Position numbers and translations under genes: made by a program. From an uncultured bacterium (lineage in GTDB: Bacteria > Krumholzibacteriota > Krumholzibacteriia > LZORAL124-64-63), in contig CAVSZB010000005.1 in the NCBI GenBank assembly GCA_963732385.1, positions 39,742-103,741 of the forward strand: a stretch of 64,000 bases of DNA, read 5' to 3'. The notes below the pieces were generated by a model. That model saw only the letters and a program-made list of their open reading frames with translations. It was not told where the DNA came from and searched no databases. Of the stretch, positions 1 through 34,369 are shown in pieces; the stretch's first letter is position 1, and each line of letters begins with the position of its first letter.

Positions 1-1239
1 AGTACGTGCGTCCAACCTTCAGCGGGAAATTCCGCGGCGGCACCGGCACGTGGACCGGCACCACGCCGGGCGTGGCGGTCCGCACCAGGAAGTCGATGTT
101 GTGCGGGCTGCCGACGATCACCTGCACCGGGACCTCGTCGCGGACACGCGCCTCCGACAGTTCGCCGCTCACGCCCAGGAACCACTGGACCGACGGCTCG
201 AACAGACGCTCGTCGGCGCAGGTGCCCACGAGCACCCACTCGTCGCGCGGGGCGAGCGGGATGGCGGTGACGAGCTGGGGAATGCCCTTCTCGAGCAGTT
301 CGCGGATGGTCCGCTCCAGTTCGCCGAACACCGGGCCGAGGTTCTCGTGCTGGTAGGCCGGCAGTTCGCGGGGGCTCCGGTCGACCACGAACGTGCAGAG
401 CGCGCCCGCCAGCTGCGCCAGCGTGAGGTACGCCGGCAGCGGGTGGCCGCGCGGATTGCGCTGGTGGTGCGCCAGCAGAGGGACGAACGAGTTCGCGGTG
501 TGCAGCAGCCAGAAGTGACCCACGTCGGCGGTGCCGAAATCGACCAGCCCGCCCCCGCGCTGCCGCGTCCCCTCGCTCAGGTAGGCGCTCTTGGTCACCA
601 GCGTCTCGAGCAGGAAGCGCATGATGCCGGGCAGCGGACCGGCTGCCGCGATCGTCAGGCTCGGCGGCGCATAGTCGCGCGCGAGGATGAACCGGCCGTC
701 GCTGGCGCGTTCGATCTCGGCGATCTTCAGCACGACGTGACCGGCCAGGTTCTCGCCGCCGAAGGCGAGCTTCAGATTCAGGCGCGAAACGACGATCTCG
801 ACCTGCTTGCCGGGGTCGTTCTCGTCGATGACCCGCACCACATCGCCGAGCTGGCGCGTTTCCGCGGCGCCGGTGCGCTCGGGCAGGCGGCAGAGCGGCA
901 CGCCGGCCCGCTCCTCGGGCGTGGCCAGGAACACCTCGAACCGCGTCTGGTCGGGACCGAACGCCTCGTTGAGCGGCCGACTGGGCGGCAGCGGGTCGAC
1001 GGCGGGCGCGCGCACGATGCCGCCGTCGGGCAGGACGGCGTCCACCTCCAGCAGGGTCAGGCGGCCGTTGCCCAGCGCCTCGGTATCGATCTGCAGCGAG
1101 CGGACGCCCCAGGCGAACGGGATCAGGGCGTCCTGCCGGAACTGGATCTCGCCGAGCAGGGCGCGATCCGCCTGCTGGAAATGCTGAGGGCCGAGAAACA
1201 TGCCCTCCTGCCAGACGACGCGGTTGTGACGGCTCATGA
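1..1239 (-). CDS. tssK: T6SS baseplate protein TssK (N-terminal ~413 aa; continues beyond window start)
   Basis: Manual reverse-strand translation from the ATG at 1239 gives MSRHNRVVWQEGMFLGPQHFQQADRALLGEIQFRQ..., the canonical TssK/ImpJ N-terminus. The frame stays open to position 1. The ORF track omits it because no stop falls in the window. Confidence 0.8.
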
Positions 1240-1268
1240 TCGCTGCGGCCCCTTCGTTGTCCGCCCGC

Positions 1269-1745
1269 TCACGACTTGTCCGCGGTCAGGCAGAGCTTCT
1301 CCAGGCGGATGGCGATCCGGGCGGAACCGCCCTCGAGCCTGACCACCTTTTTCCAGCACCCCGAACGGTGATCGCAGAAATCCGCCACCACGCCGACGGC
1401 CGTCACCCCCTTGCCGCGCGCCAGCTCGAAGATCTGCGCCGGCTCGCCCGGCATGACGGTCAGCTCCCTGACCGACGCCACGGCCTCGCCCAATGCCCGG
1501 CCCCGGTCGTCCCAGAGCCGGTCGAAGGCCGCTTCGCCGAACGCCTCCGCGTCGCGCAGGCTGTAGATGCGCACGACCACGGCATGATCGGCCGGATCGT
1601 CGCACGAGTTCAGGCGGGCCGCCCCCACCACGCTGAAGGCATCCCTGGCGGCGCCGCCCAGCCCCAGCATGCTGCATCCGCTGACGCCCACGGCCAGGCC
1701 CAGGAGCGTCCCCAGCGCCAGCGCCCTACCGATTCTGACCGACAT
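1269..1745 (-). CDS. tssJ: T6SS outer-membrane lipoprotein TssJ
   Basis: 158 aa with a signal peptide and lipobox (LAVGVSGCS). AVVVRIYSLRD and the overall size match TssJ/VasD/SciN. It lies 29 nt upstream of tssK on the same strand. Confidence 0.75.
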   Translation of the reverse strand: MSVRIGRALALGTLLGLAVGVSGCSMLGLGGAARDAFSVVGAARLNSCDDPADHAVVVRIYSLRDAEAFGEAAFDRLWDDRGRALGEAVASVRELTVMPGEPAQIFELARGKGVTAVGVVADFCDHRSGCWKKVVRLEGGSARIAIRLEKLCLTADKS

Positions 1746-1826
1746 CTTCGACTCCTTCGTGCGCAGCCGCTGCGGGAAGGGCCGGCGCGCGGTCCGTATG
1801 ACCGGCGCGGCCTCGCCGCGCCAGAC

Positions 1827-2480
1827 TCAGCGGCCTGCGATGCCGGGCGGTGGCGGGAAGCCCGGCAACGGTCCGGCCGGCGTCGTTTCGCCGTCGCCGC
1901 CGCCGCCACCGAGACTCATGGCCAGACCGCCGACCACGCCGACGATCAGCGCGATGCCCAGCGGCTTGGCGAAGAACGACTTGCCGCCCTTTCCGGTCTG
2001 CACCGGCGTCGGCTGCCAGGTCGGCTGCGGCGCGGGAGCGGGCGTCGCGGGCGACACGGTCGCCGGCGCCGACTCGCTGCGGCAGCCCGCCGCGGCCTGA
2101 TCGAAGTCCACCTGCTCGTCCCTGGGCAGCACGTCGGCCTCCGGACGCCAGCCGGCGTCGATCCGGAGCGCCTCGCAGAACATGTCGCGCGCGATGCTGT
2201 GATTGCCCAGGTTCACCAGACAACGCGCCTTCAGCACGTAGGCGTCGCGCAGGGCCGCACCTTCGAGCGTGCCGCCACTGATGAACTCGTTGCAGATGTC
2301 GAGCGCCTTCTGGAAGTCCGCGAAATCATACAGATCCTGGGCCTGAGCGAGTGCCGGAGTCCCGGCCGCGAGCGCGGCCCCGATCCAGAGCCCGCCCGGA
2401 GCCACGGTGGCCAGAAAGGCGATCAGGGTCGCCAGGCCCAGAACCCGAAAAGCGTTGTGGCGACGGTAATTGCCCATCAT
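1827..2480 (-). CDS. TPR-like membrane protein (N-terminal TM, Pro-rich segment, C-terminal TM), T6SS-associated by position
   Basis: The MMGNYRR start at 2480 has an AGGAGG-like RBS about 12 nt upstream. Hydrophobic stretches occur at both ends. It sits between the kinase genes and tssJ. Confidence 0.45.
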   Translation of the reverse strand: MMGNYRRHNAFRVLGLATLIAFLATVAPGGLWIGAALAAGTPALAQAQDLYDFADFQKALDICNEFISGGTLEGAALRDAYVLKARCLVNLGNHSIARDMFCEALRIDAGWRPEADVLPRDEQVDFDQAAAGCRSESAPATVSPATPAPAPQPTWQPTPVQTGKGGKSFFAKPLGIALIVGVVGGLAMSLGGGGGDGETTPAGPLPGFPPPPGIAGR

Positions 2481-2633
2481 CTCCGGTCCCCCCTCCTGAT
2501 GACGATCTGCAGTCCGGAACGCAGCATCTGACAATCGCCCGCACGGCTCAAGGAAAATTTGGGCGGCGCAACGGTCAGGGCGCCGACAGTTCGAAGCGGA
2601 TCCGGATCTCCTGGTTCTCGGCCAGCCTGACCT

Positions 2634-4715
2634 TCACCCGCCCCTCCCCCCCGCGCCGCGGCTGAAAGTCAGCGCGCCGCCATCGCCCGCGTTCTGGGCG
2701 CCGGTCACCACGTAGCCGGGGCAGCGCGCGCCGATCGTGTGCTCGCCCGCCTCCAGCTTCACCTGCAGGAAGGGGGTCTGCTGGCCGGTGTCGATCCCGT
2801 CGATCGTCACGAACGCGGCCGGGGTGGCGGCCACGCGCAGTGAGCCGGTCCGCTCGAGGAAGCGGTGGTGCCCCAGCGCGAGCGTCTCGCCGGCCGCGAT
2901 CTGGAAAGCCGGCAGGTCGAGGCGCCCGTACGACGGTCGGTACCGCAAAGAGACGGCGTGACGCCCGGCGTTGGCGGCCATCACGGCGACCTTCGCCCCC
3001 TCCTTGACCAGCTTCCCGTCCAGATAGACGTCCGCGTACGGAGAGATCACCACCCGCGCGTAACCGCGGCCCGGCGTCGCCGCGACCGTGGCGGAAGCGG
3101 CAGGGGGGGCGGCCACCGGTCGTTGTTGCGCCGGCGCTGTCGTGGGCGCTGTCGTGGGCGCTGTCGTCGGCGCTGTGGTCGGCGCTGTGGTCGGCGGGGT
3201 CGACGCAGCCGGCGGCGGCGTCGACAGCGGCGCGTCGACCGGCGCTGCGGGCGCCGGCGTCGAAACCGCCACGGTGTCCGGCGTCACGCCCGTGCGCGCG
3301 AACCGCGGCACGGGAGAGAGCAGGCGGCCGCCGATCATGATCGCCGCGGCGGCCACGACCACCAGCACGGCCGCGGCCGCCCAGCGCGAGCCGGGCGAGG
3401 CGAACCATGAGCGGAGGCTGCTGCCGGACCCGGCGCCGGCCGTGCGGCCGGCCTTCGGCGCCGCCGCCTTCGGTTCGGGCGGGCGCGCCCTGCCAGCGGT
3501 GCGGGAGGCGGGGGCTGCGGAGGCCTTGGGCATGACGAGCGTGCGGCCGGTGGCGTCCTCGTCGGCGCGGGCCGGGCGGGCGGCGACGGCGAGGCTCTGG
3601 CCCGATTCCTCCGCCCTGCGCTTCAGTTCGCTGATCGCCTCGCTGGCCTTGCTGTTCTGCGGGTCGAGCGAGAGGACGTAGTGGAACTCGCGGATCGCAT
3701 CGCCGATGTTCTCGAGCCCCATGTTCTTGAAATGGAAGCCGGCGTTGAGGTGGGCCTTGATGTTCTGGTGCCGCAGCTCCTCGGCGAACGCCATCGGCTC
3801 CTTGGCGAAACGGGCCAGGTAATCGCGGCGGTACTTGATCAGGGCGCCCGACCGGTCGATGCTCTCCATGCACTCCTTGAGCGCCAGCAGCACCTGGTCC
3901 ATGTTCTGGTAGCGCTTCGCCGGGTCCTTCGCGAGCATCTTCTCCATCAGGGACGAGAGCTCCGCGGTCAGCAGCGGGCAGGCTTCGCGGGTCAGCGGCG
4001 CCGGCGCGTCGTTGATGATCGACTCCTGCACGGATGTCGGCGTGTCCCCCTTGAACGGCTTCTCCCCGGACAGGAGCTGGTAGGCCATCACGCCGAGCGA
4101 GAAGATGTCCGTGCGATGGTCGAGGTCGTCCCGGCCCGCCGCCTGCTCCGGCGACATGTACGACGGCGTGCCGACGACCATCCCCGGCAGCGTCAGGTTC
4201 TGGGCGGTCAGGCGCGCGAAGTCGCGGGTGTCGCGGGCGAGGCCGAAGTCGGCGATCTTGATCTCGCCGTCGTTGCTCAGCAGCACGTTGTTCGGCTTCA
4301 TGTCGCGGTGGATGATGCCGGTCGTGTGGGCGGCCTTCAGGCCGTAGGCCACCTCTTCGAGGATCAGCAGCGCGATCTCGGCGGGCAGCGGCCGCGAGCG
4401 GCCGGCGGCCTTCTGGAAATCGGCGAACAGCTTCTGCAGATCGGGGCCTTCGATGTACTCCATGACGATGAAGTACATGTCGTCTTCGGAGCCGAAGTCG
4501 ATCACGCGGGCGATGTTGTTGTTCTGCAGCGAGGAGGCGGCCCGCGCCTCACGCTCGAAGCGGGCGATGAAGCTTTCGTCTCCGGCCAGGCCGGGGTGCA
4601 GGACCTTGACGGCGACCGAATAGTGCAGCGTTCCGTGCAGTCCCCGGTAGACCGTGGACATGCCGCCGGAGCCGATCTTCTCCTTGATCTCGTAGCCGTG
4701 GAACGTCGCCCCCAC
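2634..4715 (-). CDS. Hanks-type Ser/Thr protein kinase with TM segment, (TAPT)n linker and C-terminal PEGA domains; C-terminus probably frameshifted at a poly-C run (true end may be 2575)
   Basis: Kinase motifs GxGxxSxVY, AVK, HRDMKPNNVLL, DFGLA and SPEQ are present. PEGA-like periplasmic repeats follow. The alternative frame ends ...VKVRLAENQEIRIRFELSAP, which resembles the C-terminus of the paralog. Confidence 0.85.
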   Translation of the reverse strand: MGATFHGYEIKEKIGSGGMSTVYRGLHGTLHYSVAVKVLHPGLAGDESFIARFEREARAASSLQNNNIARVIDFGSEDDMYFIVMEYIEGPDLQKLFADFQKAAGRSRPLPAEIALLILEEVAYGLKAAHTTGIIHRDMKPNNVLLSNDGEIKIADFGLARDTRDFARLTAQNLTLPGMVVGTPSYMSPEQAAGRDDLDHRTDIFSLGVMAYQLLSGEKPFKGDTPTSVQESIINDAPAPLTREACPLLTAELSSLMEKMLAKDPAKRYQNMDQVLLALKECMESIDRSGALIKYRRDYLARFAKEPMAFAEELRHQNIKAHLNAGFHFKNMGLENIGDAIREFHYVLSLDPQNSKASEAISELKRRAEESGQSLAVAARPARADEDATGRTLVMPKASAAPASRTAGRARPPEPKAAAPKAGRTAGAGSGSSLRSWFASPGSRWAAAAVLVVVAAAAIMIGGRLLSPVPRFARTGVTPDTVAVSTPAPAAPVDAPLSTPPPAASTPPTTAPTTAPTTAPTTAPTTAPAQQRPVAAPPAASATVAATPGRGYARVVISPYADVYLDGKLVKEGAKVAVMAANAGRHAVSLRYRPSYGRLDLPAFQIAAGETLALGHHRFLERTGSLRVAATPAAFVTIDGIDTGQQTPFLQVKLEAGEHTIGARCPGYVVTGAQNAGDGGALTFSRGAGGRGG
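3137..3196. repeat. 5 x 12-bp in-frame tandem repeat encoding (TAPT)5 linker inside the kinase gene
   Basis: The unit ctgtcgtgggcg/ctgtggtcggcg repeats five times. On the minus strand it translates to TAPTTAPTTAPTTAPTTAP. Confidence 0.8.
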
Positions 4716-4749
4716 GTCGCTCCCTCCCCCCTGTGCGGACGCCGTGCTG

Positions 4750-7134
4750 TCAGGTCCGCGGTTTCCGCTTCAACTGCAGGTCGATCTTCAACCGGTCCCC
4801 CTGCGCGATCGTCACGCGGAAGGAGGTGTACTTGCCGCCGGAGCTGAGCGGCGGGAGCTGTTTCTGGCTGCCGTCGGCGGCCACCTGCGACGCGGTCTGC
4901 ACGGTGAAGTCGTCGCTGCGGACCGTCAGCGTATGCTCGCCTGGCTCGAGACGGCCCGTCCACGGCGTGTTGCCGACCCGCTCCTGATCGATGTCCAGCG
5001 GGACCGGATCGGTCGCCTCGATAGCCACCTCTCCGCCACTGAGCACCATCTCCAGCCGCACGCCCAGGGTCTGCCCGCCGCTGATCCTCACCTTCTTCAT
5101 GACCGGCGCGTAACCCGGCTTCTCGGCCCGCACCTCCCAGTTGTCCGCCGCGGTCAGTTCGGTGACCACCGGAGCGGTGCCGACCGGCCGCCACGGCTCC
5201 CCGGCCTGGCGCACCAGCACGGTGGCGCCGTCGGGCGTGACGCGCACGCGGATCCGGCCGCTGGAGCTCACCGCCGGCGCGGCCGCGGCCTCGCTCGGGG
5301 TCTCGGCGATCGTGGCCGGCGCCGGCACGGCAGCCGCGGTCCCGGGCGCGCCGGTGGCCGCGACAGCGGGCGTTTCGCCCTCTCCCTCCGGAACGAGCGC
5401 GCGCAGCTGTCCGCCCACGGAGGTCGTTTCACTCCCCGCCGCCGTCACGGCGAGCACCGTGTCCGCGTACCCCGCCAGCGACAGCCGGAACTCCCAGGCG
5501 CCGACCGCCAGGTCCGCCAGCACGCAGGCGGTCTGGCGACCGGTCGGGGTGAAATCGGCGGTGCCGGCCCGCCGCATCCAGACCTGCGCCCCTGCCGGCT
5601 CGCTGGCCACCTGTACGATCGCCGTGGCCGGCGGCGCGGTCGGGCCGCGCCGCGTGAGCAGGACCGCGGCCACCGCCACGATCACCACCGCTCCGAGCGC
5701 CATCGCCACCATGCCCCGTCGCCGGCGCAGCCCCTCCAGAATACCGGCCACGGGCGACGCGGCGGCGCGATCCGGCCGCGCCTTGCGCGGCTGACGCGGC
5801 TCCCGCGGCACACGCGGCGCACGCGGCGGCGGCGGCGCAGCCGCAGCCGGCTCCGGCGCGGGCGCCGCGACCGGCTCGGCGGCGCGCCGTGGCGGGCCGG
5901 CCGCCGGCATGACCATGGTGCGTCCCGACTCCACCGGGTCGGCGGCATCGACATCGTCGGGCTCGTGCGCGCCGAGCGGACCGGCGCCCGTGGGCGGGGG
6001 CGCGGCGCGCATCGTGACCCCTGAATCCTCGGCCCGCTTGCGCAGTTCGGCCAGGGCCTGCGAAGCCTTCGGGTTGCGCGGGTCGAGGCGCATGACGTGA
6101 CGGAATTCGCGCAGCGCGTCGGACATGCTGGCCAGGCCGAGGTTCTTGAAGTGGAAGCCGAGCCGCAGGTGCGAGTTGATGGCCTGGTGGCGCAGATCAT
6201 TGGCGGTGGCGGCCGGGTCCCGGGCGAAGCGCTGGAGCAGGTCGCGCCGCAGCTTCACCAGCCCGCCCGACGAGTCGATGCTGTCCATGCACTCCCGCAG
6301 CGCGTGCAGCACCTGGTCCATCGACTGGTACCGCTTGCCGGGATCCTTGGCCAGCATCTTGCTGACCATCTCCTCCATCTCGTTCGTCAGGAGCGGGCAC
6401 GAGGTCTCGGCCAGCGGACGGGGCGAGGCGTTGATGATGCGCTCCTGCACCTCGGTCGGGCTGTCGCCCTGGAACGGCTTCTCGCCGGCGAGGAACTGGT
6501 AGGCCATGACGCCGAGCGAGAAGATGTCGCTGCGGTGATCGACGTCGTCCCGGCCGACCGCCTGCTCCGGCGACATGTACGAGGGGGTGCCGACGATCAT
6601 GCCCGGGCGCGTCAGGTCGTCCGAGGCCATCCGCGCCTGGTCGCCCGTGTTGCGCGCGAGACCGAAGTCGGCCAGCTTCACCTCGCCGCGCCGGTCGATC
6701 AGGATGTTGCTCGGCTTGATGTCGCGGTGGACGACCCCCTCGGCATGCGCCTCGCGCAGCGCGTACGCCACCTCTTCGAGGATCAGCAGGGCGATCTCGG
6801 GCGGCAGCGGCTGGGCCGCGCCGCTCTCGGCGCGCAGCATCTCGAACACCTTGGCCAGGTCGGGCCCGTCGATGAACTCCATCACGATGAAGTAGCAGTC
6901 ATCCTCGCTGCCGAAGTCGATGACCGAGGTGATATTGACGCTGCGCAGCGCCGAGGCCGCCTTGGCCTCCCGTTCGAAGCGCGCGATGAACTGCGTGTCG
7001 CCGGCGAGGCCGGGGTGGAGGATCTTGACCGCGACGGGATAGCCCAGCGTCGTGTGGACCCCCTTGTAGACGGTCGACATCCCGCCCGCGCCGATCTTCT
7101 CGTGCACTTCGAAGCCGTGAAACGCTGTAGCCAC
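4750..7134 (-). CDS. Hanks-type Ser/Thr protein kinase (paralog of the downstream kinase) with TM and PEGA domains
   Basis: Motifs HRDIKPSNILI, DFGLA and GTPSYMSPEQ are present. The N-terminal 300 aa are near-colinear with the 2634..4715 kinase. The C-terminus has two PEGA-like domains. Confidence 0.9.
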   Translation of the reverse strand: MATAFHGFEVHEKIGAGGMSTVYKGVHTTLGYPVAVKILHPGLAGDTQFIARFEREAKAASALRSVNITSVIDFGSEDDCYFIVMEFIDGPDLAKVFEMLRAESGAAQPLPPEIALLILEEVAYALREAHAEGVVHRDIKPSNILIDRRGEVKLADFGLARNTGDQARMASDDLTRPGMIVGTPSYMSPEQAVGRDDVDHRSDIFSLGVMAYQFLAGEKPFQGDSPTEVQERIINASPRPLAETSCPLLTNEMEEMVSKMLAKDPGKRYQSMDQVLHALRECMDSIDSSGGLVKLRRDLLQRFARDPAATANDLRHQAINSHLRLGFHFKNLGLASMSDALREFRHVMRLDPRNPKASQALAELRKRAEDSGVTMRAAPPPTGAGPLGAHEPDDVDAADPVESGRTMVMPAAGPPRRAAEPVAAPAPEPAAAAPPPPRAPRVPREPRQPRKARPDRAAASPVAGILEGLRRRRGMVAMALGAVVIVAVAAVLLTRRGPTAPPATAIVQVASEPAGAQVWMRRAGTADFTPTGRQTACVLADLAVGAWEFRLSLAGYADTVLAVTAAGSETTSVGGQLRALVPEGEGETPAVAATGAPGTAAAVPAPATIAETPSEAAAAPAVSSSGRIRVRVTPDGATVLVRQAGEPWRPVGTAPVVTELTAADNWEVRAEKPGYAPVMKKVRISGGQTLGVRLEMVLSGGEVAIEATDPVPLDIDQERVGNTPWTGRLEPGEHTLTVRSDDFTVQTASQVAADGSQKQLPPLSSGGKYTSFRVTIAQGDRLKIDLQLKRKPRT

Positions 7135-7156
7135 GCCGCCTCCCTTTTCGTCCGGC

Positions 7157-7930
7157 TCAGGTCCGACTCTGCCGGGCCACCACGACCGTGATGTTGTCGG
7201 GGCCGCCCTCCTTGCGCGCCCGCTCCACGAGGAGCTGGCAGGCGCGCTGGGGCAGGTGCATCGAGACGATGCGCAGGATTTCGGGGTCGTGAATCACTTT
7301 GATCAGGCCGTCCGAGCAGAGCACCAGCGTGGCCCCCTCGGCGAAGATGACCGGGTTGCCGATGTCCGGCTCCACGCCCTCCTCGTTGCCGAGCCAGCGC
7401 GTCAGGACGTTCGACAGGCTCTGCTTGTCGGGCGGCAGCGTCTGGCCCTGGCGCCGGTACTCGCCGCCGAGCGAGTGGTCTTCGGTCAGCGGGAAGAGCT
7501 GCCCGTCGTGCGCGAGATAGGCGCGGCAGTCGCCGATGTGGCCGATCACCAGCTCCTGCCCGCGGACCACGGCGGCCGTGCAGGTCGTGGCCATGTTGGC
7601 GCGCAGCGGACTGGCGGCCGCATCGGCGAGGATGGCCCGGTTGGCCTCGAGCAGCGTCTCGTAGAGGGCCGCCCGCAGGTCGGTCGGCACGCCGGCGGCG
7701 AAGAAACGCTCGCCGAAGGTCTGCACCGCGATCCGGCTCGCCACCTCGCCCGCCGCGTTGCCGCCCACGCCGTCGGCCACGACGAGCAGCAGCGCCCCGG
7801 GCGCGGTGTCGCAGGTGAAGATGCCGACCGCGTCTTCGTTCTTCTCGCGCCGGCAGCCGATGTCGCTGAGGCTGGCGTGCAGGAGTCGCAGGCCGGTGGC
7901 CGGTGACGTCGGCGGGCTGTCGTGGTTCAT
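7157..7930 (-). CDS. PP2C-family Ser/Thr phosphatase
   Basis: 257 aa from the ATG at 7930, with GGAGG upstream. It carries the PP2C hallmarks DIGCRREKNEDA, VVADGVGG, GDCRAY and LCSDGL. The start overlaps the upstream gene's stop as ATGA. Confidence 0.9.
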   Translation of the reverse strand: MNHDSPPTSPATGLRLLHASLSDIGCRREKNEDAVGIFTCDTAPGALLLVVADGVGGNAAGEVASRIAVQTFGERFFAAGVPTDLRAALYETLLEANRAILADAAASPLRANMATTCTAAVVRGQELVIGHIGDCRAYLAHDGQLFPLTEDHSLGGEYRRQGQTLPPDKQSLSNVLTRWLGNEEGVEPDIGNPVIFAEGATLVLCSDGLIKVIHDPEILRIVSMHLPQRACQLLVERARKEGGPDNITVVVARQSRT

Positions 7931-9300
7931 GAGCCTCCTCTGCGACCCGGGAGCGCGAGGCCCGCCGGACGCGTTGTCCTGCGATAGACGAGCCCGACCG
8001 CGCCGCCCAGGAGCACGCGATCGCCTTCGCCGATGGTGGCCGTCCGCACCGGCCGTTCGTTGACCTGCGTCCCGTTCGTCGAGCGCAGATCGGTGATGAT
8101 GACCGCGCCCCGCCGCACCCGCAGCACCGCGTGCTGGCGGGAGACCCGCGGCTCCGCCACGACGATCGTGTTGCCGGCCGCCGAGCCGATCGTGGCGCCC
8201 GAGCGCGGCAGGCGGTGCACGGTCTGGCGTCCGCCGGCCGTCACGACCAGTTCGCCGGCCGAGGCGAAGCGCAGCCGCGCCAGCACGACCGCCGCGACGA
8301 TCAGCACCAGGGCCGCCAGCAGCAGCGCCGGCCAGCGGCCGATGCCGCGCTCGGCGAGCGCCCGGCGGGCGCGCAGCGTGCCGTCGGCCGCGAGCTCGCC
8401 GTCGGCGCGCGTCACGCGCAGCGTCACGTCGGCCGGCAGCCCCACGCCCGGCGCGGCAAACCGCGCCGCCAGCGCGCCGTCGACGACGGCCACCAGCCGC
8501 CGCACCGCCATCCCGGCCTCGCCGGCGCCGGCGGTCAGCAGCCGGCCGCCGCTGCCGTCGGCCAGGCGCCGCAGCCGCGCCGCCTCGGCGCCCGCCGCGT
8601 CGGTATCGCCGAGCAGGACGACGTACACCGCCACCCGGGCCGAGTCGGCGGCCGCCAGGCAGCTCACCGACGAGTAGCGGCTGCCCTGCCCCTGCCGGCC
8701 GCTCGTCACCACGATGAGCGTCCGCCGCGCCGGCAGCTCCGGAAAGGCCAGCACGGCCAGCGCGTCCTTCACATTGTCCCACAACGGGACCGGCGTGTCG
8801 CCGGCGAGGTCGGCCGCGGCCGGCGGGCGGGCCGCTCCCGCGCCGCCGCCACCGCCCGGCGCCAGCCGCCGCAGCGCCCGCGGACGCGACCCCGTCGCAT
8901 AGAGTCCGCGCCAGGCGTCGGGCGCGGCCTGCCCCGCGAACGCCGCCAGCGCCTCGCCGCAGGCCGCCACGGCGTCGGCGGGCAGGCCGCGCAGATCGGC
9001 CAGCACCGCCACCGCCGACGGCGCGCCGCCCGGAGCGGGGGCGAACGGCAGCAGCGTCGGCGCGCCCACCGGCCCGCCGCCCGCCGCGAGCGTCAGCGCC
9101 GCGGCCGGCACCGCCAGCGGCAGACCGCCGGCGTCGACCAGCGTGAACGGGAGCTGGTACTGCCCGCCCGTCAGCGGCACGCCCGGCTCGAGCCGCAGCT
9201 CGGCCGCAACCCCCTGGGCCCGCGCGCCGCCCCCCGGCGCCAGCAGCGCAATCACGACGGCCGCCGCCCGCAGCGACCGGAATCCGCGGCGTGAAAGCAT
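7927..9300 (-). CDS. Membrane protein with N-terminal signal peptide and periplasmic domain, one TM, and C-terminal cytoplasmic FHA domain
   Basis: Starts MLSRRGFRSLRAAAVVIALLA (signal). A TM segment WPALLLAALVLIVAAVVLARL follows. The C-terminal FHA signature is ATIGSAAGNTIVV..SRQHA..TDLRSTNGTQVN. Confidence 0.75.
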   Translation of the reverse strand: MLSRRGFRSLRAAAVVIALLAPGGGARAQGVAAELRLEPGVPLTGGQYQLPFTLVDAGGLPLAVPAAALTLAAGGGPVGAPTLLPFAPAPGGAPSAVAVLADLRGLPADAVAACGEALAAFAGQAAPDAWRGLYATGSRPRALRRLAPGGGGGAGAARPPAAADLAGDTPVPLWDNVKDALAVLAFPELPARRTLIVVTSGRQGQGSRYSSVSCLAAADSARVAVYVVLLGDTDAAGAEAARLRRLADGSGGRLLTAGAGEAGMAVRRLVAVVDGALAARFAAPGVGLPADVTLRVTRADGELAADGTLRARRALAERGIGRWPALLLAALVLIVAAVVLARLRFASAGELVVTAGGRQTVHRLPRSGATIGSAAGNTIVVAEPRVSRQHAVLRVRRGAVIITDLRSTNGTQVNERPVRTATIGEGDRVLLGGAVGLVYRRTTRPAGLALPGRRGGS

Positions 9301-9399
9301 GTCCGCGCCGCCCCTCCCCACGGTACGACCAGGTGCGCCGGCGGGAGAATCCCGACCCGCGTGGCGGAGTCTAAGGCGCGGCGGCGGGCATCGCAATCG

Positions 9400-11193
9400 C
9401 TAGTCGACCGGCAGATCGAACTGCTGTGGGCAGCGCATCACCACGGCCGCGGCCAGGAAGCGCGACACGTACTCCCGCGTCTCCTGCGGCAGACACGGCG
9501 CGTCCTTGCGCACGAGGTCCCAGAACTTCCAGCGCGACCACCAGTCGATGTTCATGCGCCGCAGGCAGGCGCGCAGCCCGTTGTCGCCCTTGTTGTAGGC
9601 GGCCACCGCGCACATGCAGTCGTTGGAACCGTAGGCGATCATCAGGTCCTGCAGGTACTGGCAGGCCGCGGTCGTGGCCCGCACCGGGTCCTTGCGCTCG
9701 TCGACGGTGTCGTCGACCCGCAGGCCGTAGTCGCGGGCGGTGCCGCGCATGAGCTGCCACATCCCCATCGCCCCGGCCGGACTCTCGATCTCGGCCTGGT
9801 AGCCGCTCTCGATGAACGGAAGGTAGCAGAAGGCCTGCGGGATCCCCTGCGCCTCGAGCTGCGAGCGCAGCATGTCCAGGTGCGGCCGCGCCCGGCGGAG
9901 CGTGCGCAGGGTGTAGTCGCGCCGGTCGACCGTCCACATCCGCACGGCGCCTTCCACCTCCGCCACCATCGTGCCCGGCAGCGCGTCCAGCCGCGTGTCG
10001 ACCCCGAACTGGGCGAAGATCCGCGACAGCTCCTCTTCCAGGCTGAAGGCCGGCGGCGGCGGGACGGCCGGCGCCGTCTCCTCGGCCGCGGTCACCTCGG
10101 GTTCCGGCGGCGGAGGCGGCGGCGGCCGCCGCCCCTCGCGCAGCTCCTGCAGCAGCGCGAACGGATCGCGGTCCCGCAGCCGATCCCGGTCGATCCGCTT
10201 GGCGGTCTCGCGCAGCGCCTCCCGCACTTCGTCGTCGCTCTGCCGGTCGGGCGGCAGCCGGTCGGCCGCGATCAGCGAGCGGATGGCGATCTCGAACTGC
10301 GCCTTGGCCACGGTGTCGTTGGGCGGCGAAGCGTCGTAGGCCACGAGCGCGTCGTCGAGGCTGCGCCGCGCCTGCTCGACGTACATGTCTTTCGTCCAGA
10401 GCCGCTCCACCCGCTCGCCCGCCGGCCGCAGCGACGGCAGCAGCAGCACCCCCACCAGCACCAGCGCCGCGATCCCCAGCACCATCGCCCCATGCACCGA
10501 AGGCACGGGACACAACTGCACGGTGAAGACGACATCGGCGAACCCGACCCGGTCCCCCACCCGCAGTACCCGCTCCTTGACCGCCTCCCCGTTGACGGAA
10601 GTGCCGTTCCTGCTCCCGGCATCGGTGAGCAGCAGCCGGTCCCCCCGCCGCTCGATCCGCGCATGCACCCCCGAGATCTGCGCCAGCGGCAGCAGCAGAT
10701 CGGCCCCCTCGTCCCGCCCGATCACGCTCAGCTTGCGCGCCAGCAGCAGCGAGGCTCCGCCCGCCCGCGTATCGCGCGACACCAGCCGCAGACAGAGCAG
10801 CCCCGCCGGATCAGGCAGCCGCCGCCCCGCCCCCCGCGCCCGCACCGGCCGCTCGAGCGAGAACACGAACTCCCGCTCCGGCCCCAGCCGCAGCACCGCG
10901 CCGTCCCGCAACGGCGCCCGCCCCACCCGCTCCCCGTCGACAAAGGTCCCGTTGGCGCTCCCCTGGTCCTCGACGAACCAGACCGCCCCCTCCTGCACCA
11001 GCTGCGCATGCCGCCGACTGAGCGCCGCATCGTCGATACAGAGATCGCACCCCGCATCCCGCCCGATCAGCAGCCGCCCCCCGGCCGGCACGCACACGTC
11101 GGCCCCGCCCGCCCGCGGACGCACCCGCGCCCCGCAGGCCGGCCGCGCCCCCGCGCGCCCCCCCGCTCTAAGTCCGCCGGAAGTGTCAGCCAT
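9400..11193 (-). CDS. FHA-FHA-TM-SLT fusion: two N-terminal FHA domains, a TM helix, poly-Pro linker and C-terminal lytic transglycosylase (SLT) domain
   Basis: FHA motifs (GRDAGCDL..SRRHA..GSANGTFV, and IGRDEGADL..SGVHA..GSRNGTSVN), a TM AMVLGIAALVLVGVLLLPSL, a PPPPPPP linker, and the SLT catalytic region ESGYQAEIESPAGAMGMWQLM...YN. Confidence 0.8.
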   Translation of the reverse strand: MADTSGGLRAGGRAGARPACGARVRPRAGGADVCVPAGGRLLIGRDAGCDLCIDDAALSRRHAQLVQEGAVWFVEDQGSANGTFVDGERVGRAPLRDGAVLRLGPEREFVFSLERPVRARGAGRRLPDPAGLLCLRLVSRDTRAGGASLLLARKLSVIGRDEGADLLLPLAQISGVHARIERRGDRLLLTDAGSRNGTSVNGEAVKERVLRVGDRVGFADVVFTVQLCPVPSVHGAMVLGIAALVLVGVLLLPSLRPAGERVERLWTKDMYVEQARRSLDDALVAYDASPPNDTVAKAQFEIAIRSLIAADRLPPDRQSDDEVREALRETAKRIDRDRLRDRDPFALLQELREGRRPPPPPPPEPEVTAAEETAPAVPPPPAFSLEEELSRIFAQFGVDTRLDALPGTMVAEVEGAVRMWTVDRRDYTLRTLRRARPHLDMLRSQLEAQGIPQAFCYLPFIESGYQAEIESPAGAMGMWQLMRGTARDYGLRVDDTVDERKDPVRATTAACQYLQDLMIAYGSNDCMCAVAAYNKGDNGLRACLRRMNIDWWSRWKFWDLVRKDAPCLPQETREYVSRFLAAAVVMRCPQQFDLPVD

Positions 11194-11195
11194 GA

Positions 11196-11627
11196 TCACG
11201 TCGCCGCAGGCAGCGGGAAACACCGGAAGAGGAACCGCGTGCCCCCCATCTGCACCCGGTCACCATCGCGCAGCGCCTGCTCGGTAATCCGCACGTCGTT
11301 CACGAGCGTCCCGTTGGTGGAGTTGAGGTCCCGCAGCACGTACTGCCCCCCCCCGAACACCACCTCCGCATGCCGACTGGAAAGGAACCGATCATCCCCG
11401 ATGATGACATCGCACCCCGCCACCGACCCGAAGCGAAGGGTCCCGGCCGTCAACCGAAAGTCCCGCCCCCGCTGCGCCCCACTGACAGCCACGAGCCACG
11501 CCACCAACTCCTGCCGCCCCACCGGACTCATGAGGACAGCCGTCTTGTCGAGATCGTCCACCGTCATCGCCCCCGGCGCCGCCACCGGCACCACAGGAGG
11601 AGGAGCAGCAGGAGGCGCAGGCGGCAC
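11196..11627 (-). CDS. FHA-domain protein (probably the C-terminal part of a zinc-ribbon/FHA protein)
   Basis: FHA signature FRLTAGTLRFGSVAGCDVIIGDDRFLSSRHAEVVFGGGQYVLRDLNSTNGTLVN. The N-terminus is a Pro/Ala-rich low-complexity stretch. Confidence 0.7.
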   Translation of the reverse strand: MPPAPPAAPPPVVPVAAPGAMTVDDLDKTAVLMSPVGRQELVAWLVAVSGAQRGRDFRLTAGTLRFGSVAGCDVIIGDDRFLSSRHAEVVFGGGQYVLRDLNSTNGTLVNDVRITEQALRDGDRVQMGGTRFLFRCFPLPAAT

Positions 11628-11690
11628 ATAGGCCGGAGGAGCCAGCAGGCGCAGCAGGAGCCGCCGGCGGAATGACCGGCCGCGCCCCGA

Positions 11691-12158
11691 TCACCGTGAT
11701 GTCATCCCCGCCCCCACCGGGTCCCCCCACCCCCGGCCCCGTCGGCACCCGACGGATCGGTTCGGAAACCGGCCGCGCCACCGGCGCATGCTCGATCCGC
11801 CGCACCGGCTCCGGCGCCCGCTGAAAAGGTTGAGGAGCAGGCGGCACCGCGCCAAGGGAGGAGGCGCAGCAGGAGCAGCCGGACAGCAGGAGCAGCCGGC
11901 CAAGTCGGCGGCCCCGCCGCCGGCGGCAGGAGACGTATAGGCAGGAGCCCCAGCCCCCGCATGAGGCGCCGGCGGCATCGGCTCCGCCGCCCGAGCCCCC
12001 CGCCCCGCCGCCGAACTCCCCCGCTCGTCATCTACAGGGATGAAATCCCCGCTAAGATCGCTCCCCCCCTCACAATAAGGACAGCTATCCCAAGACGGAT
12101 CCAGGAGATGCCCGTTCGCACAATGCCGCACCTTGTTCTTCCGCTTCCCGAACAGCAT
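11691..12158 (-). CDS. Zinc-ribbon domain protein with Pro/Ala-rich tail (probable N-terminal part of the FHA protein, split by frame changes)
   Basis: MLFGKRKNKVRHCANGHLLDPSWDSCPYCEG (CxxGH..CPYC zinc ribbon) followed by a low-complexity linker. Three overlapping frames are open across 11390-11850. Confidence 0.5.
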   Translation of the reverse strand: MLFGKRKNKVRHCANGHLLDPSWDSCPYCEGGSDLSGDFIPVDDERGSSAAGRGARAAEPMPPAPHAGAGAPAYTSPAAGGGAADLAGCSCCPAAPAAPPPLARCRLLLNLFSGRRSRCGGSSMRRWRGRFPNRSVGCRRGRGWGDPVGAGMTSR

Positions 12159-12598
12159 GCTCCCCCATCTCCCCCGCAGGACGGCCAAGCCAGCTAACTT
12201 TGTGGCTTGAGAAGGGTTCGGGGCAGTCTACCAACGGGGGTGCGGGGATTGTCAACTTACTGGGCGGAGGACTTGTTCCCAACCCAGCTTCGATCGTAAG
12301 GCCGGCGGGCAGCGTGCTCTCGCCATTTATTGCCCAGGACGCTGCTAGGATTGCCGAGATGGCTTCGAGTCACCCGTCCGCAAGCACTTCAACACGCTGA
12401 TGGCCGTGCTCATGTCGAGCCGGAACATCTGCGGAACGCAAAGCCCCAGCCAACCTACGAGGGCAGTTGATTGCAGCCAGCCCTATAGATTTACACTGCC
12501 ATGCGCTTAGACTATGCTGGTTCAGCCTTGTGGGCCAGGGGGGCCAGCGGGCTCCGTTGCAGTCACCTGATTCATGTTAACCACCGTGGGAGTGGGCA

Positions 12599-14654: not shown

Positions 14655-14659
14655 ATGTC

Positions 14660-15655: not shown

Positions 15656-15781
15656 CGGAGAAAGCCCCCACACGTGGTGCGAGGAGCTGCCTCACTCTAC
15701 GATCGGCTCCTGAGGTGGAACCGTGTCCTCGCGGCATAAGATCTCTCTGGAGGCCTGCTTGAAACGAACCAGACGATCGGG

Positions 15782-18838: not shown

Positions 18839-18839
18839 C

Positions 18840-26921: not shown

Positions 26922-27752
26922 ATGCCGGCACCGAATGCGCAGATGTTTTCCCAGCTCACCCGCACGAATTTCAGCGCGAAGGGCATTCTGATTCCGCTGG
27001 ACTGGGCGCCGCCGGGCGAGCAGTTCCCCGACGCGTTCGCGCCGGCGGAGCGGCAGGTCGCGCCAGGGTCGCCCACCGAGCTGTTCCATGCGGCCACCCT
27101 CAACAAATACCATGTCGATGCCGCCAGCGGCATGAGCGACAGGCTCGGCACCTACATCGACGGGGTCTGCGGGGCGATCTGCGGGGCGATCGGCAACTGG
27201 ATGCAGACCGCGATGGTCGCCGGGGCGCTCATCAACGGGCCGGTCGGGACGCTGCTGCCGGGCGGGGTCGTGGGGCCGCCTCTGCTGCCGCTCATTTTGG
27301 GGCAGGCGCCCAGGACGACGCCGCTCGAGACGCAGTACTCGCTGGCGATCGCCAACGCGTTCAGTTCGGCCTGGCAGGCGTGGCAGACGGGGCTGACCGG
27401 GATGCTGAGCTATCCGGCATTCGCGGCGGTGCCGTCGCCGGTGGCGCCGCCGATGCCCAACGTGCCGATGCCGCTGGTGACCTTCCCGTCGGCCGGCGAG
27501 GCGATGCTCTCCCCCGCCACGCTGCAGGCCTCGATGGTCGGGATGCTGGGCAATCCGACGGCGCAGCACGCGCCCGAGCTGTTCGACGCGCTGGCGCAGG
27601 CGTTCGGCATGGTGTTCCAGATGTTCAAGTCGACGACCATCGTGCAGAATGTGCTCGGCACCGGGCCGGTGCCGACGTTCGCGCCGCCGTTCGTGCCGGT
27701 GGGTCCGGTGCTGGCCGGCACCGTCATCCCCACGCCCGGGGTGTTCGTGTGA
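26922..27752 (+). CDS. Hypothetical protein (276 aa) between PAAR and DUF2169; candidate PAAR-associated cargo or chaperone
   Basis: No signal peptide. Pro/Ala-rich C-terminal half. Position only. Confidence 0.45.
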   Translation: MPAPNAQMFSQLTRTNFSAKGILIPLDWAPPGEQFPDAFAPAERQVAPGSPTELFHAATLNKYHVDAASGMSDRLGTYIDGVCGAICGAIGNWMQTAMVAGALINGPVGTLLPGGVVGPPLLPLILGQAPRTTPLETQYSLAIANAFSSAWQAWQTGLTGMLSYPAFAAVPSPVAPPMPNVPMPLVTFPSAGEAMLSPATLQASMVGMLGNPTAQHAPELFDALAQAFGMVFQMFKSTTIVQNVLGTGPVPTFAPPFVPVGPVLAGTVIPTPGVFV

Positions 27753-27777
27753 GCGACCGGCGGAGGGTCGCAGCGAC

Positions 27778-28902
27778 ATGAAGATCGTCAACGAGACGCC
27801 GTTCATCGCCGAGGCGCTGCCGTTTGTCTGGCCGGACGGACGGGCCGCGCTGACGATCATCCTCAAGGGGACGTTCACGATCCGTCCGGATGAGCCGGCC
27901 GAGCCGGCGATCGAGCAGCTGCCGATCCTGTTCGCCGACGCGCCGCTCGACCCGGAGAACCCGGCGCTGGGCGCCCGGTTCGAGGCCGACGTCGTCCCGT
28001 TCAAGCCGCGCGCCGACATCGTGCTGGTGGGCAAGGCGCACGCGCCGCCGCGCAAGCTGGCGCGGGCGCTCGACGCGGCGCTGCGCGTGGGCAAGGTGAA
28101 GAAGGTCGTGCGGGTGATCGGCGACCGCCACTGGACCTGCGGCGGACGCCTGCTGCCGGCCGCGTTCTCGGCGGCGGAGCCGTTCAAGAGCATGGACCTG
28201 GTCTACGCGCGCGCCTTCGGTGGCATCGACCAGAAGGGGGGCGGCTACTGCCGCTACAACCCCATCGGCCGCGGCTACATGGCCAAGAAGAGCAAGAGCG
28301 CGGTCGACGGCACGCCGCTGCCGAACGTGGAAGACCCGCGCCACCTGATCAGGAAGTGGGACAGCCGTCCGCGCCCCGCCGGTTTCGGCTTCACCGGCCG
28401 CGGCTGGCTGCCCCGCCTGCGCTACCTCGGCACCTACGACGAACGGTGGCGCAAGGAGCGGGCGCCGGCGCCGCCGGAGGACTTCCGCTTCGAGGCGTAC
28501 AACGGCGCGCATCCCGACCTGCAGGTGAAGGAATACCTGCGCGGCGACGAGGACGTGGAGCTGGTCCACCTCACGCCGGAGCCGCGCCTGCGCTTTTTGC
28601 TGCCGGCGGTGACGCCGGTCTGCGCGGTGCTGCGTCACGGCGCGGCGGTCGATCCGGTGCTCGCGCGAAAAGACGACGAGAAGGTCGACGAACCGCCGCC
28701 GCCCATCCCGCGCGACGGCGAAGAGCAGGTCGTCGACGAGCCGACGCCGGGCTCGTCGGCCGGCGAGCGGGTCGCGCTGAATCTCGACACGCTCGTGTTC
28801 GACCCCGAAGAGATGCGTTTCTATCAGGTCTGGCGGGGCGTCTTCCCGCTGGCCGACCCTGCGGCGCGCGAAGTGGCGGAGATCGGCGTCTGGCTGGCGT
28901 GA
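27778..28902 (+). CDS. DUF2169-domain protein (T6SS effector adaptor family)
   Basis: The N-terminus MKIVNETPFIAEALPFVWPDGRAALTIILKGTF is typical of DUF2169. It sits between PAAR and the PLD effector. Confidence 0.7.
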   Translation: MKIVNETPFIAEALPFVWPDGRAALTIILKGTFTIRPDEPAEPAIEQLPILFADAPLDPENPALGARFEADVVPFKPRADIVLVGKAHAPPRKLARALDAALRVGKVKKVVRVIGDRHWTCGGRLLPAAFSAAEPFKSMDLVYARAFGGIDQKGGGYCRYNPIGRGYMAKKSKSAVDGTPLPNVEDPRHLIRKWDSRPRPAGFGFTGRGWLPRLRYLGTYDERWRKERAPAPPEDFRFEAYNGAHPDLQVKEYLRGDEDVELVHLTPEPRLRFLLPAVTPVCAVLRHGAAVDPVLARKDDEKVDEPPPPIPRDGEEQVVDEPTPGSSAGERVALNLDTLVFDPEEMRFYQVWRGVFPLADPAAREVAEIGVWLA

Positions 28903-28951
28903 CGCGCCCGGCGTGCCGGCCGTCCGCCGTTTCGCGGCACGGAGTTGAGCG

Positions 28952-31900: not shown

Positions 31901-32041
31901 CGGACCGTCACCGTCGGCGCGGGGCAGTCGGTCCCGCTGGAGATCGGCGAGGCCTCGAAGGTCAACGACCAGGACGACCGGGCCAGGATCACGGCCCTGG
32001 CGGATGCGGAATACTCGCTCGACATGAAGAGCTGGACCTAG
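28952..32041 (+). CDS. Phospholipase D superfamily protein with two HKD motifs (Tle5/PldA-like T6SS lipase effector), 1029 aa
   Basis: HKD motif 1 HQKTIIVD...GGIDL and motif 2 HSKLLIVDD..GSANAGGIS. The size and PAAR/DUF2169 context match T6SS PLD effectors. Confidence 0.8.
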   Translation: MANEVHLTGQNVLDPPPRDRWFVDYLPLCGGDELTYYVDGESYATDLHAALTGAAQEICLTGLHFSGHFHLKRPGGCDPLKQDDPDTLQEILAARSKAGCEIYLLVNQFWPDEGKLAANYWRAYRDLDKLLWKMPSAIRGTIMASGGIPDYLERTFAFFKYLKDHGNAAKIHCYTDIHQGYIFHSNHQKTIIVDRKTAFWGGIDLTDIDGDRWDAAAHTPGNKLRNFDKPERNWHDLQMRAVKPQGAKVSAVDYVYANFLARYNHGYLYTPWRNGQGVLEAKQESGFPRLSPPGGKTAQDYVPKKHWYYPRQRERYQKQNVLAWPLVQVVRSMPAGAGGNYARNQHPLWNELRVAVQPDPDFPPQYVNPAFEHSARDAYLKGIAAAEKFIYLENQWVADDRIWAALFAAAEKHGAEADFRLLVVLPKKFLAAAGFGSEQTIDLNPYVEKLARIFKAKGRPENFGLFSILQPAAHQDPVRDQTQVPECVWDYMYVHSKLLIVDDCWALLGSANAGGISLTGLGTTSEPDTELSAIVLDERDDGSLVKQLRKKLWAEHLGVAEGNVADYKTGADLFHKQAKEQAFNTTSARRAHYNLLYYPSSPKAAAAPNQGVWRHLKWAQIQHQVKARVADPDAIHQTYYNLSGPLTAVHMLLERDPSRYEKLVANLYKTGVDKACDVRLQMPNPHLHDVPVLVRPQELVEFAVESEHPILEVDWMVGGALTDSANWVLDYQGSVSETTATVCSNGDMVRHLKKTIPCQGGVTHLSCESYGELKEAQKASLLLGTGAPTKPHTVFGAVKIGTALLLQRDDAAVERDKGVANRDLGDPKYWISRVTDNPWLQLRRDRAYPLYPGVLTPYDVKHILGDRMYVRLLQPLEFKYDGDKITHVRMSFWTWGHRSTLEVPAALFAKQVYGFFIGYYTNGARARAEEKFRLRADRVKLKAGWQRDYVHDDCDGSKLTVTCVSGSLRVELARAVWSTWEVVRTVTVGAGQSVPLEIGEASKVNDQDDRARITALADAEYSLDMKSWT

Positions 32042-32051
32042 GCGGCGGACA

Positions 32052-33172: not shown

Positions 33173-33176
33173 AGCG

Positions 33177-34319: not shown

Positions 34320-34369
34320 GCGGCGGAGAGGGCGCGCGGCGCCGGGCCGCGCGCAGACGGTGGAAACGG

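Follow-up and report, generated by a model that had tools for sequence, protein, structure and literature searches.

Insertion of a type VI secretion system (T6SS) membrane complex requires local remodeling of the peptidoglycan, for which two solutions are known: enteroaggregative Escherichia coli (EAEC) recruits the lytic transglycosylase MltE via TssM, and Acinetobacter and Burkholderia use the locus-encoded endopeptidase TagX (PMC13584744, PMC10482370). At another level of control, the PpkA/PppA/Fha pathway licenses T6SS assembly post-translationally in Pseudomonas, Serratia, and Agrobacterium (PMC13584744, PMC10482370). How the membrane complex passes the peptidoglycan and how its site is chosen are only partly understood, and neither MltE nor TagX has been connected to the licensing of assembly by threonine phosphorylation. 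Among the T6SS accessory genes listed in a 2026 review, there is no lytic transglycosylase that is fused to FHA domains or encoded at the locus. Here we describe a module of kinase, phosphatase, and FHA protein genes next to tssJ and tssK in a 64,000-nucleotide stretch, referred to as a whole as the window, of contig CAVSZB010000005.1 from an uncultured bacterium of the Krumholzibacteriota (assembly GCA_963732385.1).

The distinctive element of this module is a T6SS-linked lytic transglycosylase that has two canonical cytoplasmic FHA domains. With a probability of roughly 0.6, we read the locus as a T6SS-dedicated threonine-phosphorylation module of an undescribed type, in which the kinases would act through an FHA-SLT protein, and the arrangement suggests that phosphorylation may decide where the wall is opened for the T6SS. 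Among the observations that speak for this reading are the domain content with its intact catalytic residues; a topology in which one transmembrane (TM) helix separates cytoplasmic FHA or kinase domains from periplasmic SLT, vWA-like, or PEGA domains; the linkage to T6SS genes in every informative locus; and the presence of the rest of the T6SS in the same window. A first-pass annotation had already recognized that genes of the T6SS membrane complex are physically linked to a Ser/Thr-phosphorylation module, and that FHA domains are fused to periplasmic modules. The linkage across loci bears out the former, and SLT and vWA-like ectodomains the latter. That one of these periplasmic modules is an SLT lytic transglycosylase, which is the key feature of the locus, had been missed.

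Results

A lytic transglycosylase with two canonical FHA domains

In the FHA-FHA-TM-SLT protein (Table 1), the TM helix occupies residues 247-265 (numbering of the 607-amino-acid open reading frame, ORF) and separates the FHA pair from the SLT domain. Across an alignment of 28 homologues, the phosphothreonine (pThr)-binding signature of the second FHA domain (FHA2) is invariant (G169-R170, S184, H187, and N206-G207-T208). The signature of the first FHA domain is canonical too, both domains having G-R, S-x-x-H, and N-G-T. The SLT motifs E472-S473, GxWQ (G487/W489/Q490), and AYN (A541/Y543) are likewise invariant in the 28 homologues, and by its Glu-Ser, GxWQ, and AYN motifs this is a family-1 SLT lytic transglycosylase domain. 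The nearest solved lytic transglycosylase is the LysM-type 8rhe (8e-18).

When 1.84 billion representatives were searched library-wide, 142 matched at E<=1e-30; among the matches listed, most were SLT-only or FHA-only, and about a dozen clusters at 50% identity were near full-length among the best 150 matches. By this count, the FHA-FHA-SLT family is small and rare. No description of an FHA-SLT T6SS accessory protein or of a Krumholzibacteria T6SS was found in the literature searched, and since that literature coverage was incomplete, the negative result is not proof of absence.

MltE resembles the protein described here in being an SLT-type lytic transglycosylase tied to TssJLM assembly, but it is a housekeeping lipoprotein that is encoded elsewhere and recruited by TssM. 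TagX, similarly peptidoglycan-cleaving in the periplasm, anchored in the inner membrane, and encoded in a T6SS locus, differs in being a VanY-type L,D-endopeptidase. Unlike the SLT protein of the window, neither has cytoplasmic FHA domains or a known link to phosphorylation.

Linkage of the module to T6SS genes

TssJ and TssK of the window both exceed the curated equivalog cut-offs of TIGR03352 and TIGR03353 (Table 1). The gene order was expected to continue into tssL and tssM beyond position 1, and it does so on two lines of evidence. Two short contigs with an identical TssJ encode a full-length TssK of 451 amino acids followed by a DotU/TssL gene, and among related loci the order TssJ-TssK-TssL-TssM is found in all whose contig reaches far enough beyond TssK.

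We compared the window with related loci, which are designated by L numbers. Nine loci were informative in having enough flanking sequence (the window, L001, L003, L004, L006, L008, L089, L093, and L094), and T6SS genes adjoin the module in all nine. The link between module and T6SS is well supported because it holds in nine of nine loci, down to 27% identity, and in at least five layouts (co-oriented, where either no kinase, one, or two are adjacent; divergent with two downstream contexts; embedded in a T6SS cluster). The window and L004 are co-oriented with tssJK and have two kinases; L094 is co-oriented in the same way, with one kinase and ackA preceding, and L001/L002 are co-oriented without an adjacent kinase, with ClpV-VgrG-effectors preceding. 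The module is divergent from tssJKLM in L003, L006/L007, and L008, where thiolase, SAM_HAT, and sigma-54 activator genes follow, and also in L093, where sugar-nucleotide genes follow. At 27% identity, L089 has FHA-FHA-SLT and PEGA kinase genes between tssE-tssC-tssB-tssA-FHA and hcp, with PP2C and vWA-like genes not adjacent.

As judged from these comparisons, the conserved core is six genes, which encode a small FHA protein with an intrinsically disordered region, the FHA-FHA-TM-SLT protein, a vWA-like-TM-FHA protein, a PP2C phosphatase, one PEGA kinase, and a TPR-like protein. This core adjoins tssJKLM or lies within a T6SS cluster, and by homology the module is shared among Krumholzibacteria, Eisenbacteria, and uncultured lineages related to them. 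The Eisenbacteria contig L090 retains the six-gene order and ends before the flanks. L091 has genes for an FHA-SLT protein with a single FHA domain, an FHA protein, a VWA-FHA protein, PP2C, and the start of a kinase; this contig, too, ends before the flanks.

FHA-SLT proteins also occur away from T6SS genes. A profile search of genome contigs with the FHA-FHA-SLT alignment keyed on generic SLT motifs and is no census of the T6SS-linked clade; it gave at least 80 loci, mostly MltD-like housekeeping ones, and among the matches listed none had T6SS genes and FHA-SLT was found in only five (L010, L031, L044, L057, and L060). Metagenome-assembled genomes (MAGs) of Chitinivibrionales/Fibrobacterota (L010 7482-11530; L044 7621-11629; L057) have a gene for a 770-784-amino-acid sensor-TM-Hanks kinase and, about 30 nucleotides downstream, a gene for an FHA-TM-SLT protein. 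These pairs are like the module in having a single-pass FHA-TM-SLT protein encoded directly downstream of a membrane Hanks kinase; they differ in their single FHA domain and in the sensor region of the kinase, and within 10 kb of them no gene for PP2C, a vWA-FHA protein, or the T6SS was detected. Around the FHA-SLT and kinase genes of L060 there is likewise no T6SS gene within 10 kb, and a Myxococcales FHA-SLT example is also T6SS-free. Since T6SS-free examples exist, the kinase/FHA-SLT pairing is not intrinsically T6SS-specific; at the same time, adjacent pairs outside the T6SS support a direct kinase-to-FHA-SLT relationship. We read this relationship as a more general pairing, of which one clade became a dedicated T6SS accessory module.

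The same pairs bear on an alternative explanation, namely that the genes form a general envelope or cell-wall Ser/Thr module (cf. FhaA/FhaB-PstP-PknA/PknB) for peptidoglycan turnover or growth, whose adjacency to the T6SS is inherited synteny without any T6SS control. In addition to the T6SS-free pairs of Fibrobacterota, Chitinivibrionales, and Myxococcales, this explanation can draw on the fact that the T6SS-linked cases come mostly from one broad lineage, and on the actinobacterial operon FhaA-FhaB(FipA)-PstP-RodA-PbpA-PknA-PknB. That operon shares with the module the order FHA, FHA, PP2C, and two paralogous Hanks kinases, and has a cell-wall output; in sequence and structure, the kinase, phosphatase, and FHA domains here match best to PknB, PknA, Stp1, FhaB, and GarA. 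However, the kinases reach 297 and 291 bits against the PknB_PASTA_kin model (cut-off 450), aligning in the kinase domain only, and the FhaB model gives at most 93 bits (cut-off 125). PASTA domains are absent from the module, as are rodA and pbpA; its wall enzyme is lytic (SLT) and itself an FHA protein, and the module is T6SS-linked in a didermic lineage. Moreover, adjacency to T6SS genes persists through inversion, kinase loss, kinase duplication, and full change of the flanks. It still holds in L089, among tssA/B/C/E and hcp, and loci of the tandem-FHA clade that have adequate flanks and lack T6SS genes number zero of nine. On balance, we consider inherited synteny of a general module unlikely.

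The kinases and their TPR-like partner

The kinases STK_A and STK_B have intact VAVK, HRD, DFG, and SPE motifs and one TM helix each, and the best Protein Data Bank match of STK_B is PknB (2e-47). The two proteins are 65% identical in their cytoplasmic parts and 25% identical in their extracytoplasmic parts, which in Pfam match only PEGA/CarboxypepD_reg. In a neighbor-joining tree and an identity matrix, the STK_A/STK_B pair groups with the two kinases of L004 and branches after the single kinases of other loci; this placement and the identities point to a recent tandem duplication followed by divergence of the sensors. The two paralogous PEGA Hanks kinases of the first-pass annotation are confirmed, whereas its notion of an expanded module is not: the duplication is seen only here and in L004, a single kinase belongs to the conserved core, and in L001 none is adjacent.

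The juxtamembrane linkers of STK_A and STK_B contain the motif G-R-T-[LM]-V-M-P, which is common to the kinases of L004, L094, and L090. Many FHA domains prefer a hydrophobic residue at position pT+3. GRT[LM]VMP fits this preference and is a candidate autophosphorylation and FHA-docking site. The kinases of L003, L006, and L008 carry T-[RK]-V-x-G instead, in two cases with a K before it.

The gene for the 217-amino-acid TPR-like protein follows the kinase gene in L003, L004, L006, L008, L090, L093, and L094 and is missing in L001, which is also kinase-less; kinase and TPR-like protein are thus present or absent together. Four Cys residues in the periplasmic domain and the LPGFP tail are invariant in an alignment of orthologues. 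The protein has no family assignment by sequence, with a sub-threshold TPR_8 match only, and its AlphaFold model is confident at residues 42-132. A relationship to TagR, TagQ, or RtkS was considered and is unsupported, since the fold search gave generic TPR matches only.

The other FHA proteins and the phosphatase

The vWA-like-TM-FHA protein was modeled by AlphaFold at a pLDDT of 78 as a signal sequence, a beta-sandwich, an alternating beta/alpha domain, a beta stalk, a TM helix, and a cytoplasmic FHA domain. Foldseek matched the model to FHA domains and to the vWA-containing ITIH1 (6fpy; 7.5e-8 over 330 columns), and BLASTP matched the protein at 9e-16 to its counterpart in L091, in which Pfam finds VWA and FHA. 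The window protein itself has a weak acidobact_VWFA match in NCBIfam only and no Pfam VWA match, and the DxSxS motif of the metal ion-dependent adhesion site is absent from it (LADLRG).

The gene of the small soluble FHA protein is interrupted in the window. Its orthologues are single ORFs of 236-314 amino acids that begin with MxFGKxK, continue in a Pro-rich linker, and have the FHA domain at the end. Both ends of the window gene are in the same frame and the middle (...RRIEHAP...DDITVIGARP...) is readable only in another, indicating two compensating frameshifts (at about 11850-11940 and about 11647); there is also an in-frame stop at 11691-11693. The middle is uninterrupted in L005, where the small FHA gene is intact, has the same Zn-ribbon-like motif, and adjoins the gene of an FHA-FHA-SLT protein 83% identical to that of the window. 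The interruption is either a MAG assembly error in a G+C-rich, low-complexity stretch of Pro codons or the mark of a pseudogene. Comparison with the orthologues rules out a separate Zn-ribbon gene, or fourth FHA-related gene, at 11691-12188. With the ORFs at 11196-11627 and 11691-12188 forming one gene, the nine-gene cluster of the first-pass annotation shrinks to seven accessory genes; its count of three or four FHA proteins settles at three, with four FHA domains in total.

In the FHA domains of the small protein and of the vWA-like protein, G-S replaces the canonical G-R and is kept in orthologues. Because the phosphate-binding Arg of G-R is missing, pThr binding by these two domains is uncertain. 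The PP2C phosphatase scores 194.6 bits against the Stp1/IreP model, under its cut-off of 230.

The described T6SS threonine-phosphorylation pathway (TagE/PpkA-TagG/PppA-TagH/Fha1; P. aeruginosa H1, Serratia, and Agrobacterium) is similar to this module in that a bitopic Hanks kinase, a PP2C phosphatase, and one or more FHA readers are encoded beside tssJ-tssK-tssL-tssM, with presumed post-translational licensing. The PpkA kinase reportedly carries a periplasmic vWA domain. By contrast, the kinases here bear periplasmic PEGA repeats, and the vWA-like domain is on a separate TM-FHA protein. Further differences are the three FHA proteins, two of them bitopic, the two kinases in this genome, the C-terminal position of the FHA domain in the small protein, and the host lineage, an uncultured Krumholzibacteria/Eisenbacteria group. 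Membership in TagH/Fha1 (TIGR03354, cut-off 120.25 bits) was rejected: the window proteins scored 29.6, 67.3, and 43.7 bits and an intact orthologue of the small protein 38.5 bits, with only the FHA domain aligning. TagQRST, RtkS, and TagF domains were not found among the genes of 1-12188 or the called genes of related loci. Judged by these scores and architectures, the module is not an orthologue set of PpkA/PppA/Fha1. The likeness to regulators of that type proposed in the first-pass annotation therefore stands for the position beside tssJK and fails for family membership, the kinases being PknB-like.

It could still be argued that an ordinary PpkA/PppA/Fha1-type pathway operates here, with only the kinase, the phosphatase, and the small FHA protein acting on the T6SS, through phosphorylation of the FHA protein or TssL, and the SLT-FHA and vWA-FHA proteins as passengers that have no part in a phospho-dependent opening of the wall. 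The placement mirrors the order fha1-tssJ-tssK-tssL-tssM...pppA-ppkA of Pseudomonas (see also PMC10482370), the small FHA protein is like Fha1 in being soluble and having a long disordered region, and the TssL N termini of relatives have a common S/T-[AG]-R element. Yet conservation in the module is as strict for the FHA-FHA-SLT and vWA-like-FHA genes as it is for the phosphatase gene, and it is FHA2 of the SLT protein in which the pThr-binding residues are invariant, whereas the small FHA domain lacks the canonical Arg. In L089, it is the SLT protein and a kinase that are retained together, the PP2C and vWA-like genes not being adjacent, and no protein reaches the TagH cut-off. We regard an ordinary pathway with passengers as quite unlikely. 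The S/T-[AG]-R element lies near residues 8-12 of TssL (L001 15995-16690, L003 6404-7099, L006 6459-7157, and L008 6405-7118). As a TssL phosphosite, by analogy to Thr14 of Agrobacterium TssL, it is too weak to call.

Organization and transcription of the gene array

The six-frame ORF lists of the window are full of spurious frames because its G+C content is about 71%. Within 1-12188, a coherent minus-strand gene set was picked by third-position G+C, families were assigned from Pfam and NCBIfam, and start codons were chosen by ribosome-binding site support. By this frame analysis and these scans, a single minus-strand array spans 1-12188 and comprises the interrupted Zn-ribbon/Pro-rich/FHA gene and the genes for the FHA-FHA-TM-SLT protein, the vWA-like-TM-FHA protein, PP2C, two PEGA kinases, the TPR-like protein, TssJ, and TssK. 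The vWA-like-TM-FHA and PP2C genes overlap at an ATGA stop/start (7930-7927), as had been annotated; with supported starts, the remaining intergenic gaps are 2, 99, 22, 34, 153, 81, and 31 nucleotides. No terminator-like site or hairpin was found on the minus strand within the array. Matches to the sigma-54 promoter were fewer than expected by chance, and none lay upstream of the operon; a candidate promoter is listed in Table 1.

One transcript over the array is plausible. Of the earlier proposal that the T6SS genes and the module are co-transcribed, the minus-strand array and the ATGA overlap remain, but co-orientation is not conserved: L003, L006, L008, and L093 are divergent from tssJKLM, and the L089 genes lie among tssA/B/C/E and hcp. 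A few kb downstream of the module, loci of divergent layout have a large gene for a protein with TPR and sigma-54-activator (AAA+/HTH_8) parts (L003 20566-21812; L006 20999-21746), which may regulate T6SS transcription.

Other genes of the window

The rest of the T6SS core lies further along the window (Table 1). Hcp is supported by a tblastn search of the window with the L089 Hcp, and TssB by one of L089 with the TssB of the window; no explicit location was obtained for TssE or TssG among the T6SS genes at 27481-51227. After VgrG there are two ORFs, one of 526 amino acids without a family (36054-37634) and one for a PG_binding_1 protein (35303-36067). A DUF2169/HEAT cassette similar to that of the window separates VgrG from the FHA module in L001.

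In L001 the ClpV-VgrG-effector cassette directly abuts the FHA module, and in the window about 13.6 kb (12.2-25.8 kb) separates the module from the other T6SS half. Because the T6SS halves are contiguous in L001, this stretch looks like an insertion. It includes a defence-like island at 12599-21165 with a low G+C content (54-57%) over about 12-16 kb. The island encodes a 238-amino-acid ORF without assignment, a GmrSD_N/DUF262 protein (PADLOC NsnA 5.5e-37), a RelA_SpoT-domain protein (PADLOC PDC-S33 3e-8), an AbiEii-like gene product, and a Schlafen-AlbA_2/HATPase_c_4 (ATPase) protein between two SIMPL/DUF541 ORFs, one of them partial. Beyond the T6SS genes, a minus-strand gene at 52901-56662 encodes a 1253-amino-acid protein of the secreted type in which trypsin, fn3, Ig-like, and FlgD_ig (C-terminal sorting-like) domains occur; a plus-strand multi-PAS sensor gene (62514-63998) extends off the window end.

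Table 1. Features of the window, with the evidence for each assignment (aa, amino acids; nt, nucleotides)
Feature	Position	Strand	Description and evidence
TssK	1..1237	-	Baseplate subunit; N-terminal 412 aa only, extends past window; PF05936 5.8e-99; TIGR03353 315.6 bits vs cut-off 100
TssJ	1269..1745	-	Outer-membrane lipoprotein; PF12790 8.3e-22; TIGR03352 73.5 bits vs cut-off 31.6; lipobox VSGC
TPR-like protein	1827..2480	-	Small bitopic protein, 217 aa; signal sequence, periplasmic TPR-like helical domain, Pro-rich linker, C-terminal TM, LPGFP tail
STK_A	2634..4715	-	Tandem paralogue of STK_B, 693 aa; GRTLVMP (T392), TM 448-466, Pro/Thr-rich linker, PEGA; Pkinase 3.1e-50; PEGA 2e-4
STK_B	4750..7134	-	Bitopic Hanks kinase, 794 aa; kinase domain, conserved helical juxtamembrane domain, GRTMVMP linker (T406), TM 475-493, periplasmic PEGA repeats; Pkinase 3.7e-50; PEGA 1.3e-15
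PP2C	7157..7930	-	Ser/Thr phosphatase, 257 aa; PP2C_2 1.1e-20; PP2C 7.8e-13; start overlaps upstream stop (ATGA)
vWA-like-TM-FHA	7927..9300	-	457 aa; FHA Pfam 1.1e-16
FHA-FHA-TM-SLT	9400..11193	-	597 aa; two cytoplasmic FHA, one TM helix, periplasmic helical region, SLT; Pfam FHA x2 1.8e-37; SLT (PF01464) 9e-21
Small soluble FHA protein	11196..12158	-	N-terminal Zn-ribbon-like CxxxH...CxxC, Pro-rich disordered linker, C-terminal FHA; FHA Pfam 1.5e-17
Candidate promoter	12225..12255	-	TTGACA-19 nt-TAGACT, TGg just upstream of -10; about 67 nt upstream of ATG at 12158; read off the sequence itself, the 19-nt spacer being outside the range that the scan covered; consensus resemblance only
Putative effector/adaptor cassette	27481..35281	+	DUF2169, 1030-aa PLD-like protein, HEAT-repeat protein; Pfam
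VgrG	38101-40446	-	T6SS core; Pfam
ClpV	40442-43519	-	T6SS core; Pfam
TssF	44157-46406	-	T6SS core; Pfam
Hcp	~47405-47983	-	T6SS core; tblastn
TssC	47984-49615	-	T6SS core; Pfam
TssB	~49482-50027	-	T6SS core; tblastn
TssA	50028-51227	-	T6SS core; Pfam

Discussion

From domain content, topology, residue conservation, and gene linkage, we infer a mechanism for the T6SS-dedicated module. A cue from the periplasm or envelope would be sensed by the PEGA kinases, probably with the help of the TPR-like protein and probably a different cue by each paralogue; the kinases would then autophosphorylate on threonine, with GRT[LM]VMP in the juxtamembrane linker as the candidate site. The two canonical FHA domains of the bitopic transglycosylase would read the pThr, and the periplasmic SLT domain would be concentrated or activated there. 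It would then open the peptidoglycan locally, and the TssJ-TssL-TssM membrane complex could insert. By analogy with Fha1/TagH, the other two FHA proteins may recruit the TssK baseplate as scaffolds, the vWA-like-TM-FHA protein across the envelope and the soluble Pro-rich one in the cytoplasm; the PP2C phosphatase would remove the marks and allow disassembly and repositioning. A stricter form of this idea is an inside-out, pThr-gated lytic transglycosylase, in which binding by the tandem FHA domains would position or switch on the SLT domain only where a T6SS complex is licensed; we offer it tentatively, as a possibility and not as the outcome we expect.

Several points weigh against a T6SS-dedicated module that works in this way. 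The host organisms of the module are uncultured. Two of its four FHA domains, lacking the canonical Arg, may not bind pThr, and this assembly has frameshifts in the small FHA gene. The L003, L006, and L008 kinases have a different Thr motif and lack the proposed docking threonine, and L001 has no adjacent kinase. Loci with an FHA-SLT protein and a kinase exist without a T6SS (L010, L044, L057, and L060), and with the informative loci mostly from one broad lineage, the synteny may in part be inherited and not selected.

If this stricter form is correct, it would be the first direct molecular link from Ser/Thr phosphosignaling to the breaching of peptidoglycan for the assembly of a trans-envelope machine. 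A locus-encoded transglycosylase that is at the same time an FHA phospho-reader would unite both control layers, wall opening and licensing, in one protein. The duplicated kinases would allow two different envelope cues to trigger the same wall opening, and in the T6SS-free kinase/FHA-SLT pairs of Fibrobacterota the switch would exist in a general version. The module also indicates that the poorly studied phyla Krumholzibacteria and Eisenbacteria have phospho-control of the T6SS in a structurally different form, and the FHA-SLT family could be a source to mine for kinase-controlled wall hydrolases.

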